This document shows, one piece after another, positions 13,851 to 25,657 of a stretch of DNA of 64,000 nucleotides. Position 1 is the stretch's first letter, and every line of letters begins with the position of its first letter. Below the pieces are notes generated by a model. That model was not told the DNA's origin. It ran no database searches and saw nothing but the letters and a program-made list of their open reading frames with translations. This stretch comes from Escherichia coli (GTDB taxonomy: Bacteria > Pseudomonadota > Gammaproteobacteria > Enterobacterales > Enterobacteriaceae): NCBI RefSeq assembly GCF_003334315.1, contig NZ_QOWR01000023.1, one strand, 5' to 3'. The translations under genes and the position numbers were made by a program.

Positions 13851-14140
13851 GGTTCTCTCCCTAAAAATCTGTCTGGCAGGGTAGCGATTTGTGCGCATTG
13901 TCACGATTGAGATTTTTTAAGGTGAGGGGAAATTGATAACTTGTAGTTATGTGAAATCGCTATTTTCTGTAGCAGAGATGCATTCTTCTGACTTCTTGTC
14001 TGAGAAAATGCATAAGAAAAAATAGGTTAAAACTGAGGGGGGAAAAGAAAGGTGCAATATTTAGCCATTGTGTTCACTGCACCTGGACCTTGGCTTACGC
14101 ATCGGGTGTCTCAATCAACAAAAAGAGTTTTTAGTTTCTG

Positions 14141-14965
14141 CTATTTCTTCTCTGTAATTTTTACACTGTTTTCCAACTGCTTGATGCTGACCTGCGGGGT
14201 CGGCAACTCCTCAGGCATGGTTCCGCCAAGTTCCTGAATGGTTTGCCTCACCTTGCGACCCACGTCAAAGTGTGTGGTGTTTGCTTGCTGTTTTGAATTC
14301 ACGCCATCCCGCTTGAGTTTTTCTTCTGTTTGGGTAGCTCGAAAGAGATTAGCCGCCAGTTCTGTTGAACCCATATGATCCAGGATCTTCTGACTCTTTT
14401 TCAGCCCCTTCAGTTGGTGGATGGCTTTCTGATCTAATCCACCATACAGCCCCCGGTAACCATGATTCTGAAATATGGCGAAATCGATAGCTGTCGCTCC
14501 CCCAGCTTGCTGCGCTGCCTCAACCAATTGTTTGTTATGTTCTTTCAATTCATTTCTCAGAAAAAGACGCTTTTCGTCTTCACGAAGTTGCCTGAAAGCT
14601 TCATCGTCAGCCAGCTCCTGCCGTCGGGTCTGGATAGCAAAATAAGTTTGCCCTGCCGCAATAACCGGTTTCGCAGGGTCGCCGTTTTGTACTACCAGGT
14701 AACAGGCATAGCGGGAGAGATGAACATCTTCAAGTTCTCGTTGAGCCCCTGAACCTAATACAACCATTTTGGTGGTTTCAACGAAATGGTCAGATGCAGC
14801 TTGATTGCTGGCTTCGCACGCTTGAGTCGCGCGGGCCAGTACCTTTTGAAAATTGCGCCAGTCCCGATAATCCAGTAACGGTGCCAATTCTCTAGCTGAC
14901 CAAAATTCTTGCCCTTCAGTGCCATAATGCCGTATTTCTTCAAAAGGTTGATGATGTTCGTTCAT
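14141..14965 (-). CDS. dinD: DNA-damage-inducible protein D
   Basis: ORF track 14141..14977; start trimmed to MNEHHQPFEEIRHYG (274 aa); a LexA box lies just upstream. Confidence 0.9.
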   Translation of the reverse strand: MNEHHQPFEEIRHYGTEGQEFWSARELAPLLDYRDWRNFQKVLARATQACEASNQAASDHFVETTKMVVLGSGAQRELEDVHLSRYACYLVVQNGDPAKPVIAAGQTYFAIQTRRQELADDEAFRQLREDEKRLFLRNELKEHNKQLVEAAQQAGGATAIDFAIFQNHGYRGLYGGLDQKAIHQLKGLKKSQKILDHMGSTELAANLFRATQTEEKLKRDGVNSKQQANTTHFDVGRKVRQTIQELGGTMPEELPTPQVSIKQLENSVKITEKK

Positions 14966-15010
14966 TGCCCACTCCATGTGATATCGATTGCAAAGAAAGT
15001 AAATCTGTAA

Positions 15011-15026
15011 CTGTATTTATATACAG
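15011..15026 (-). promoter_or_regulatory. LexA (SOS) operator upstream of dinD
   Basis: ctgtatttatatacag fits CTGT-N8-ACAG exactly, 46-61 bp upstream of the dinD start. Confidence 0.8.
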
Positions 15027-15185
15027 TTGTGAGTATCTCACGTTCTCAGTGTGCTGGGCAAAAAAACATCGCAAAATCTGGAGCAGGCACGCAAAACAGA
15101 ATTGAAGTTGCGGGGAAGAAAAATGCCGCTCTGTTTGAGTGGGCGGCATTTGTGAAGGCTGAAAAGTAAGAATTAGTGTTACGAG

Positions 15186-16049
15186 TTACTCAATATTCTG
15201 AATCTGCTCGCGCATCTGCTCAATCAACACTTTCAGCTCGATGGCGGAGTTTGTCACTTCGGCATTGATAGATTTCGACGCAAGAGTGTTCGACTCGCGG
15301 TTGAATTCCTGCATCATAAAGTCCAGACGACGACCAACGGCTTCTTTTTTCTTCAGAATGTTGTAGGTCTCTTTGACATGCGCTTCCAGGCGGTCCAGTT
15401 CTTCGGCAACGTCAATTCGTTGTGCCAGCAGAACCAACTCCTGCTCCAGACGGTTGTTTTCCAACTGAACCTGAGCATCTTCCAGCTTCGCGACCAGACG
15501 CTCACGCTGCCATTGCAGGATTTCCGGCATATGGGCGCGGACTTTGACCACTTCGGCGGTGACGCCTTCCAGACGCTGCTCGATCAATGCTTTCAGTGCC
15601 TGACCTTCGGTTTCGCGCGCGACAATAAAGTCGTCCAGCGTACCATCCAGCGCCGCGAGAATTTCAGCGGCAATGGCGTCGAGATCCTGCTCCTGGGCTG
15701 CCATCACGCCCGGCCAGCGCAGAATATCAACCGGGTTGATTTCCCCTTCGTCACTCTGCATTTTTACCCAGTTCGCGGCAGTTACCAGCTGTTTAGCCAG
15801 TTTTTCATTGAGGATCAGCTCACCTTGTGCGCTAACATCTGGCTCATAGCGCAGGGTACATTCCACTTTACCGCGCGTCAGGCGAGAACGAATACGCTCG
15901 CGAACGACAGGTTCAAGGCTACGGAACTGCTCCGGCAGACGAAAGTAAGTTTCCAGATAACGCTGGTTTACCGAGCGCATTTCCCAGGTTGCGCTCCCCC
16001 ATTCACCCTTGATTTCACGCCGGGCGTAGGCGGTCATACTGCGGATCAT
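15186..16049 (-). CDS. yicC: YicC-family stress-induced protein (UPF0701)
   Basis: 287-aa ORF MIRSMTAYARREIKGEWGSATWEMRSVN. Confidence 0.92.
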   Translation of the reverse strand: MIRSMTAYARREIKGEWGSATWEMRSVNQRYLETYFRLPEQFRSLEPVVRERIRSRLTRGKVECTLRYEPDVSAQGELILNEKLAKQLVTAANWVKMQSDEGEINPVDILRWPGVMAAQEQDLDAIAAEILAALDGTLDDFIVARETEGQALKALIEQRLEGVTAEVVKVRAHMPEILQWQRERLVAKLEDAQVQLENNRLEQELVLLAQRIDVAEELDRLEAHVKETYNILKKKEAVGRRLDFMMQEFNRESNTLASKSINAEVTNSAIELKVLIEQMREQIQNIE

Positions 16050-16175
16050 AGACGTTCCTGTTTATAAAAGGAGAGGTGGAAGGATTATAGCCATCGATGC
16101 CTTGTCAGGATAGGAATAACCGCCGGAAGTCCGTATAATGCGCAGCCACATTTGTTTCAAGCCGGAGATTTCAAT

Positions 16176-16892
16176 ATGCGTCCAGCAGGCCGTAGCAATA
16201 ATCAGGTGCGTCCCGTTACCCTGACTCGTAACTATACAAAACATGCAGAAGGCTCGGTGCTGGTCGAATTTGGCGATACCAAAGTGTTGTGTACCGCCTC
16301 TATTGAAGAAGGCGTGCCGCGCTTCCTGAAAGGTCAGGGCCAGGGCTGGATCACCGCAGAGTACGGCATGCTGCCACGTTCTACCCACACCCGTAACGCT
16401 CGTGAAGCGGCGAAAGGTAAGCAGAGTGGACGCACAATGGAAATCCAGCGTCTGATCGCCCGTGCTCTTCGCGCGGCAGTAGATTTGAAAGCGCTGGGTG
16501 AGTTCACCATTACGCTGGACTGCGACGTGCTTCAGGCTGATGGTGGCACGCGTACCGCGTCGATTACGGGTGCCTGCGTGGCGCTGGCAGATGCGCTACA
16601 GAAGCTGGTGGAAAACGGCAAGCTGAAAACCAACCCGATGAAAGGGATGGTAGCCGCAGTTTCTGTCGGTATTGTAAACGGTGAAGCAATTTGCGATCTG
16701 GAATACGTTGAAGACTCAGCCGCAGAGACCGACATGAACGTAGTGATGACCGAAGACGGGCGCATCATTGAAGTGCAGGGGACGGCAGAAGGCGAGCCGT
16801 TCACCCATGAAGAGCTACTCACCTTGTTGGCGCTGGCCCGAGGGGGAATCGAATCCATTGTAGCGACGCAGAAGGCGGCGCTGGCAAACTGA
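16176..16892 (+). CDS. rph: ribonuclease PH, full length (238 aa)
   Basis: ORF track 16152..16892; start trimmed to [14 protein letters not shown]; reads through to ...[16 protein letters not shown] without a frameshift. Confidence 0.93.
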
Positions 16893-24598: not shown

Positions 24599-25657
24599 GT
24601 GGATAAGCCATTTCGAAGAATTTTGCTCATTAAGATGCGTTTTCATGGGGATATGTTATTAACTACTCCCGTCATTAGTTCGCTGAAAAAAAATTACCCT
24701 GACGCAAAAATCGATGTGCTGCTTTATCAGGACACCATCCCGATCCTGTCTGAAAATCCAGAGATTAACGCGCTCTACGGCATAAAAAATAAAAAAGCAA
24801 AAGCCTCAGAAAAAATTGCCAACTTTTTTCATCTCATCAAGGTATTACGTGCCAATAAGTATGACCTTATCGTCAATCTCACCGATCAATGGATGGTTGC
24901 TATACTGGTTCGCTTATTAAATGCCCGTGTGAAAATTTCCCAGGATTATCATCATCGGCAGTCTGCTTTTTGGCGTAAAAGTTTCACCCATTTGGTGCCG
25001 TTGCAGGGTGGAAATGTGGTGGAAAGTAACTTATCCGTGCTGACCCCATTGGGAGTTGATTCGTTGGTGAAGCAGACAACCATGAGTTACCCGCCTGCAA
25101 GCTGGAAACGTATGCGTCGCGAACTTGATCACGCTGGTGTTGGACAAAATTATGTGGTTATCCAACCTACGGCGCGGCAAATCTTCAAATGCTGGGACAA
25201 CGCCAAGTTTTCCGCTGTGATTGATGCCTTACATGCTCGTGGTTATGAAGTTGTTCTGACGTCCGGCCCAGATAAAGACGATCTGGCCTGCGTCAATGAA
25301 ATTGCGCAGGGATGCCAGACGCCACCAGTAACGGCGCTGGCTGGAAAGGTGACCTTCCCGGAACTTGGTGCGTTAATCGATCATGCGCAGCTGTTTATTG
25401 GCGTTGATTCCGCACCGGCGCATATTGCCGCTGCAGTTAATACGCCGCTGATATCGCTGTTTGGTGCGACAGACCATATTTTCTGGCGTCCCTGGTCAAA
25501 TAACATGATTCAATTCTGGGCGGGAGATTACCGGGAAATGCCAACGCGCGATCAGCGTGACCGAAATGAGATGTATCTTTCGGTTATTCCGGCGGCAGAT
25601 GTCATTGCTGCTGTCGATAAATTACTGCCCTCCTCCACGACAGGTACGTCGTTATGA
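24599..25657 (+). CDS. waaQ: LPS heptosyltransferase III
   Basis: GT9-family ORF; start ambiguous between GTG 24599, TTG 24623 and ATG 24635 (MRFHGDMLLTTPVISSLKK...). Confidence 0.9.
   Translation: MDKPFRRILLIKMRFHGDMLLTTPVISSLKKNYPDAKIDVLLYQDTIPILSENPEINALYGIKNKKAKASEKIANFFHLIKVLRANKYDLIVNLTDQWMVAILVRLLNARVKISQDYHHRQSAFWRKSFTHLVPLQGGNVVESNLSVLTPLGVDSLVKQTTMSYPPASWKRMRRELDHAGVGQNYVVIQPTARQIFKCWDNAKFSAVIDALHARGYEVVLTSGPDKDDLACVNEIAQGCQTPPVTALAGKVTFPELGALIDHAQLFIGVDSAPAHIAAAVNTPLISLFGATDHIFWRPWSNNMIQFWAGDYREMPTRDQRDRNEMYLSVIPAADVIAAVDKLLPSSTTGTSL

Follow-up and report, generated by a model that had tools for sequence, protein, structure and literature searches.

The DNA analyzed here (the window, a 64-kb stretch of the Escherichia coli genome) carries a palindrome, CTGTATTTATATACAG, upstream of dinD, and the question raised by this locus is whether the palindrome is the operator through which LexA controls dinD and whether such a site has a second role. 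The palindrome is found at positions 15011–15026 (+ strand), 46–61 bp 5' of the dinD ATG (14965, minus strand). Both the coordinates and the distance had been given in a preliminary description of this DNA, and both were recovered when we read the sequence directly. The element has a 16-bp palindromic core of the form CTGT-N8-ACAG with an AT-rich spacer. The 20-mer that contains this core, AACTGTATATAAATACAGTT (15028–15009, minus strand), was assigned as the LexA operator (SOS box) of dinD from its sequence, its heterology index (HI), and its identity with the K-12 operator. It is located 44 bp 5' of the ATG and ∼90 bp 3' of the yicC terminator, and the locus as a whole is the E. coli rph-yicC-dinD-yicG-ligB region.

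The dinD coding sequence (14141–14965, minus strand) encodes a protein of 274 amino acids that matches the NCBIfam model NF008573 ("DNA damage-inducible protein D") over residues 1–274 with a score of 500 bits (cut-off, 242) and that contains a Pfam Bro-N domain at residues 10–105. The minus-strand open reading frame in which dinD lies (14141–14977) has another in-frame ATG at 14977, which is not accompanied by a Shine-Dalgarno sequence. We prefer the start at 14965 (MNEHH) because a Shine-Dalgarno GGAG (14975–14972, minus strand) is found 6 nt before this ATG and because this start is the one annotated in K-12. The DinD protein was reportedly found by Uranga et al., in J Biol Chem in 2011, to be an inhibitor of RecA filaments.

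The 20-mer was scored with a matrix derived from the 18 published E. coli boxes in Table 4 of PMC3009722, from which dinD was left out to give a 17-box matrix; scores were calculated as the Berg-von Hippel HI and as log-odds. With the leave-dinD-out matrix, the dinD 20-mer had an HI of 2.95 and a score of 25.8 bits. With the full 18-box matrix, its HI was 2.14, which places it among the strongest SOS boxes (the 18 known E. coli boxes have a median HI of 5.24 and a maximum of 9.29) and bears out the earlier view of it as a consensus-quality SOS box. The dinD box is unique in the window, in which the second-ranked site had an HI of 12.07. When 30 windows of 64 kb were simulated with a first-order Markov model, the best HI obtained was 6.68 and the mean of the best sites was 10.95, so the matrix scoring that the preliminary description had proposed as a check puts the dinD box far past the chance distribution. 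The same description had called the operator "perfect," a term that holds for the CTGT-N8-ACAG core and fails for the full 20-mer, which agrees with the consensus TACTG(TA)5CAGTA at 17 of 20 positions. Taken by itself, the loose CTGT-N8-ACAG pattern does not reach significance in 64 kb, because the two matches found in the window (0.58 expected) were reached in 14 of 100 shuffled sequences (two or more matches each). The second match, CTGTTTGGTGCGACAG at 25457–25472, has a GC-rich spacer and is not among the 15 best sites of the window (HI above 14.5), and we attribute it to chance.

The dinD operator of K-12 is a textbook SOS box that is routinely used in dinD::lacZ damage reporters, and both in vitro and ChIP evidence for LexA at K-12 dinD are said to have been provided by Lewis et al. 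in 1994 and Wade et al. in 2005. The 20-mer of the window is present, without any change, in K-12 MG1655 (3,817,697–3,817,716; positions 1698–1717 of the retrieved locus L001), where it has the same 43-bp gap to the start codon of dinD (pcsA) and the same neighbors, yicC and yicG. The published dinD LexA box, ACAACTGTATATAAATACAGTTACA (PMC3009722, Table 4), is also an exact match to the window, so the comparison with the known operator that had been suggested at the outset gave base-for-base agreement with both K-12 and the published box. Within the ∼165 bp around the box, from the yicC terminator to dinD codon 10, a single base differs from K-12 MG1655, and this change falls downstream of the box. 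In K-12, dinD has a published HI of 2.2, the third-lowest among the classical SOS genes tabulated, and it showed a 9.8-fold induction by AZT and a 12-fold dependence on LexA cleavage (PMC11228462). In addition, RT-qPCR with lexA(Def) and lexA(Ind-) strains has confirmed the LexA dependence of dinD (PMC3009722), and dinD is counted among the genes with a known SOS box (PMC6590174).

The possibility that the element is a chance AT-rich palindrome without a regulatory role gains something from the poor significance of the loose pattern in 64 kb, but it is hardly credible given that the full matrix scores it far beyond what chance produces, that the sequence is the same as the experimentally validated K-12 operator, and that a diverged promoter variant retains the box (see below). 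The palindrome is almost certainly the operator through which LexA controls dinD; the LexA dependence and inducibility of dinD are attributed to the window from the literature on the identical K-12 sequence. This operator was already known, and there is nothing new in the operator itself. It serves as a positive control, in that the reader who produced the preliminary description can recognize real operators.

The dinD operator resembles those of umuDC, sbmC, and tisB (HI about 2), each of which is likewise a single near-consensus CTGT-N8-ACAG element close to the promoter (for dinD, the predicted promoter), and these genes, like dinD, are tightly repressed and have a high LexA-dependent induction ratio. 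Unlike the boxes of this group, the dinD box has an A for T at position 1 and a T for A at position 20 (AACTGT...ACAGTT), and the product of dinD is a Bro-N protein and not a polymerase subunit or toxin.

The position of the operator was also considered in relation to the transcription signals around it. The yicC gene is 5' of dinD on the same strand and ends at 15186, and it is followed by an intrinsic terminator hairpin (15121–15151, minus strand) with a 9-bp stem and then a U-run (−12.4 kcal/mol, z −3.2). The 3' end of the yicC transcript in SMRT-Cappable-seq data (K-12 3,817,606) maps to about position 15119 of the window. Transcription of yicC stops ∼90 bp 5' of the box, and dinD therefore needs its own promoter there; the yicC terminator insulates this promoter from yicC transcription. 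A strict scan of 14850–15250 for sigma-70 promoters and terminators found nothing. In a relaxed scan, a dinD promoter was predicted at 15061–15032 (minus strand), with a −35 element TTGCCC (15061–15056), an 18-bp spacer, and an extended −10 element TGaGATACT (15040–15032). These are weak hexamers (8 of 12 positions plus TGn, score 8.5), and the start predicted from them, ∼15025, is inside the operator; the overlap of operator and promoter is thus a geometry that we infer from weak hexamers. No match was obtained when a dinD transcription start site was sought in the Cappable-seq supplements, and the dinD transcript is absent from the SMRT-Cappable-seq supplementary tables, which describe untreated cells and perhaps list terminated transcripts alone. 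The absence of a dinD transcript in untreated cells is at most weakly consistent with repression.

A different geometry is one in which the AT-rich center of the box (TATATAAAT) serves chiefly as the −10 element of dinD, such that LexA competes for the −10 element and not for the start site. Many SOS operators overlap the −10 element, and the relaxed scan returned an alternative promoter of this type, GAGATA-18-TACAGT, the −10 element of which is inside the box. However, this alternative scored 6.5, compared with 8.5 for TTGCCC-18-TGaGATACT, and we regard it as the unlikely one of the two arrangements. With the start point placed inside the operator, as we prefer, a LexA dimer in undamaged cells would occupy both CTGT/ACAG half-sites of an operator that is bordered by the yicC terminator on one side and the ribosome-binding site of dinD on the other and that overlaps or abuts the predicted promoter and start point. 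Bound LexA would exclude RNA polymerase with either promoter candidate. Upon DNA damage, the RecA-ssDNA filament would trigger LexA self-cleavage, as in the established mechanism of the SOS response, the operator would be vacated, and dinD would be transcribed. Tight repression and a high induction ratio would be expected because the box is near consensus (low HI).

To describe the conservation of the operator within the species, we used a 60-mer centered on the box, which was matched in 4,448 of 5,426 complete E. coli genomes (3,421 at ≥99%); ∼18% of the complete genomes had no match to this promoter 60-mer. The promoter 60-mer fell in the 90–95% identity band in 726 genomes. In one 90%-identity variant that was read, CTGT-N8-ACAG is kept with one spacer change (AACTGTATATAAACACAGTT, HI 2.65), and the sequence immediately 3' of the box is different. 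When the dinD segment was delimited by blastn (boundaries at 14024 and 15186), the gene, operator, promoter, and flanks together made up ∼1.16 kb (14025–15185). In strain AVS0717 (L163, 3424–3500), yicG adjoins yicC, and the dinD segment is replaced by 77 bp of unrelated sequence. As judged from these alignments, dinD together with its SOS promoter acts as a single accessory cassette in E. coli.

The window strain does not differ from K-12 in the dinD operator; it differs in having a different DinD N-terminal (Bro-N) allele, with 84% identity overall. Codons 12–95 (14680–14932, Bro-N) are strongly diverged from K-12, and codons 1–11 and 96–274 are nearly identical. A 401-bp probe was matched over ≥80% in 2,772 of 5,404 E. 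coli genomes, a roughly even split in which low probe coverage also arises from insertions and from loss of dinD. The split points to a recombinational dimorphism of the DinD N-terminal domain. Elsewhere in the window, rph is a full-length open reading frame (16152–16892), in contrast to the truncated RNase PH (rph-1) annotated in K-12 MG1655, which shows that the window comes from an E. coli other than K-12.

Outside E. coli, DinD homologs with 63–82% identity were found in very distant lineages, among them Chlorobi, Chlamydiae, Firmicutes, Spirochaetes, and a Methanolobus metagenome-assembled genome (80 loci in all, L002–L081). A type I restriction-modification (R-M) hsdM gene is ≤1.5 kb away in 37 of these 80 loci and is directly upstream on the same strand in 27. 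At one locus that was checked, a Fic gene adjoins the DinD homolog. An E. coli-type LexA box was present upstream of the homolog in 2 of the 80 loci, those of Citrobacter werkmanii (HI 4.6) and a Paraburkholderia (HI 4.1), and this count rules out LexA control as a trait of the whole DinD family. The yicC-dinD synteny is kept in Pseudocitrobacter (L002, 1374–1501), Providencia (L005), and Morganella (L013), and the intergenic region of each was free of a LexA box; in Pseudocitrobacter the yicC-dinD spacer is ∼100 bp shorter and is without the segment that contains the promoter and operator in E. coli. SOS control of dinD is lineage-specific, because the box is present at 2 of 80 loci and is missing from three that are syntenic. 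Cross-species footprinting gives no support for an ancient site and confines the claim of LexA control to the Escherichia lineage, and it does not contradict LexA control in E. coli. These results suggest that dinD is an accessory gene of R-M loci that moves horizontally and that, in Escherichia, the SOS regulon has captured it.

Some of the E. coli alignments ended within the box, and they showed that the dinD box is occupied by a mobile element in other strains. In strains 24AR0180 and 605, ISKox3, a 1,316-bp IS of the ISL3 family with a single transposase ORF (NF033550, 323 bits), splits the dinD half-sites. The occupied box reads AACTGT[ATATAAAC]-IS-[ATATAAAC]ACAGTT, in which the 8 bp duplicated at the target correspond exactly to the N8 spacer; across the dinD-box insertions, the duplication is either ATATAAAC or ATATAAAT. 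Occupied dinD alleles are found at L083 (2523–3864), L084, and L108, and the existence of two box variants together with the opposite orientation of the IS in L108 indicates at least three independent insertions in this box. Neither IS-dinD junction is still LexA-like (HI above 17 for both), and no LexA box was found when one was sought inside the IS and re-created at its junctions (best HI 16.3 or worse). We rejected the idea that CTGT and ACAG are part of the IS ends, since the 8-bp duplication separates them from the IS inverted repeat, GGGTCTTCCC, and since the site is uninterrupted in the window and in K-12.

Several other features of the IS-bearing loci were recorded. In one of the strains with ISKox3 in the dinD box, dinD is frameshifted. 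In L108 (metagenome contig UEPS01001911), the sequence to the left of the IS is the dinD operator half (identical to window 14923–15022), and the sequence to the right is the E. coli umuD operator half followed by the umuD coding sequence. This contig reflects either an assembly chimera that runs through the repeat or an IS-mediated chromosomal rearrangement involving two occupied SOS boxes. Non-matching duplications were also present at the IS copies in L095/L161, L100, L110, L124, L130, and L144.

In a general test of the relation between the ISKox3 family and SOS boxes, contigs were pulled by an exact 30-mer of the IS left end alone, with the flanks ignored, and 50 metagenomic and 25 viral contigs were retrieved in this way. 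CTGT was present at −12 to −9 in 54 of 57 distinct left flanks (the remaining three had CTGG, twice, or CTGA), with A at −13 in 91% and T at −14 in 67%. On the other side, 25 to 27 of 28 distinct right flanks (the count varies with the position) read N8 and then ACAG. The combined ISKox3 site consensus, TACTG(TA)5CAGTA, is the LexA consensus. When empty targets with a perfect duplication were reconstructed, the 20 sites had a median HI of 2.67, compared with 5.24 for the published boxes; one of the reconstructed targets was poor (HI 12.9). The fourth base of the half-site is T/A in ∼96% of the IS targets versus ∼70% of the E. coli boxes, and this stricter fourth base hints either that the transposase reads the sequence directly or that the tightest LexA sites are preferred.

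The genes next to these IS copies include umuD (167 and 131 bits, above the cut-off), humD (198 bits), dinI-family genes (below the equivalog cut-off), and members of a Tum-like family of phage anti-repressors (phrog_450); genes for small, functionally uncharacterized phage proteins also adjoin IS sites. An ISKox3 copy on an NDM plasmid has the flanks AGCTGT[ATGCATAT]...[ATGCATAT]ACAGTA, and relatives of ISKox3 at ∼85% identity, including ISEc53, have the same flanks.

These observations bear on a reading of the dinD box that is complementary to LexA binding, in which the box is a preferred landing site of the ISKox3 family and insertion into its spacer destroys the operator. This reading is favored by the IS-dinD box junction in ∼217 of 5,426 complete E. 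coli genomes, by the occupied umuDC operator in 48 complete E. coli genomes, and by the CTGT motif, low target HI, and shared flanks of the relatives that are described above. Against it, the window carries an empty, intact site, and ISKox3 under selection also enters capsule genes of Klebsiella, where the direct repeats are 8 or 9 bp long (ATTTGTAA and ATGCGAAAG) and their flanks are unreported (PMC12057282). Because these capsule-gene insertions occur, the preference of ISKox3 for SOS boxes is not absolute. On balance, SOS operators, the dinD box included, are very probably specific integration sites of ISKox3-family IS elements through a preference at the level of sequence.

With SOS operators as integration sites, the IS would enter the center of TACTGT-N8-ACAGTA, duplicate exactly the 8-bp spacer, and part the LexA half-sites. 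Such insertions would uncouple dinD, umuDC, humD, dinI-like genes, and prophage anti-repressor genes from LexA and/or from their promoters. That the ISKox3 transposase recognizes LexA-bound DNA rather than the bare sequence is conceivable, and we consider it rather doubtful. In a literature search that covered neither ISfinder nor subscription journals, no report was found in which LexA operators are connected with ISKox3 or ISL3 elements, and the targeting of LexA operators by ISKox3 is probably new.

Site- or structure-specific targeting is a property of several other mobile elements, such as the Tn5053/Tn402 "res hunters," Tn7 at attTn7, and IS1397/ISKpn1 in REP palindromes. Like these elements, ISKox3 is found at a defined point in a recurrent, protein-bound, palindromic regulatory site. 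Unlike them, it has the LexA operator as its recurrent target and is an IS of the ISL3 family. The only ORF of ISKox3 is that of the transposase, so the element encodes no accessory targeting protein.

About 1,700 Enterobacterales plasmids, most of them conjugative, carry ISKox3. Should this element home to LexA operators, the SOS regulon of clinical strains would be rewired, the mutagenic polymerase genes umuDC and humD and the induction switches of prophages would be affected, and a transposable element would be using the binding site of a global regulator as its target.
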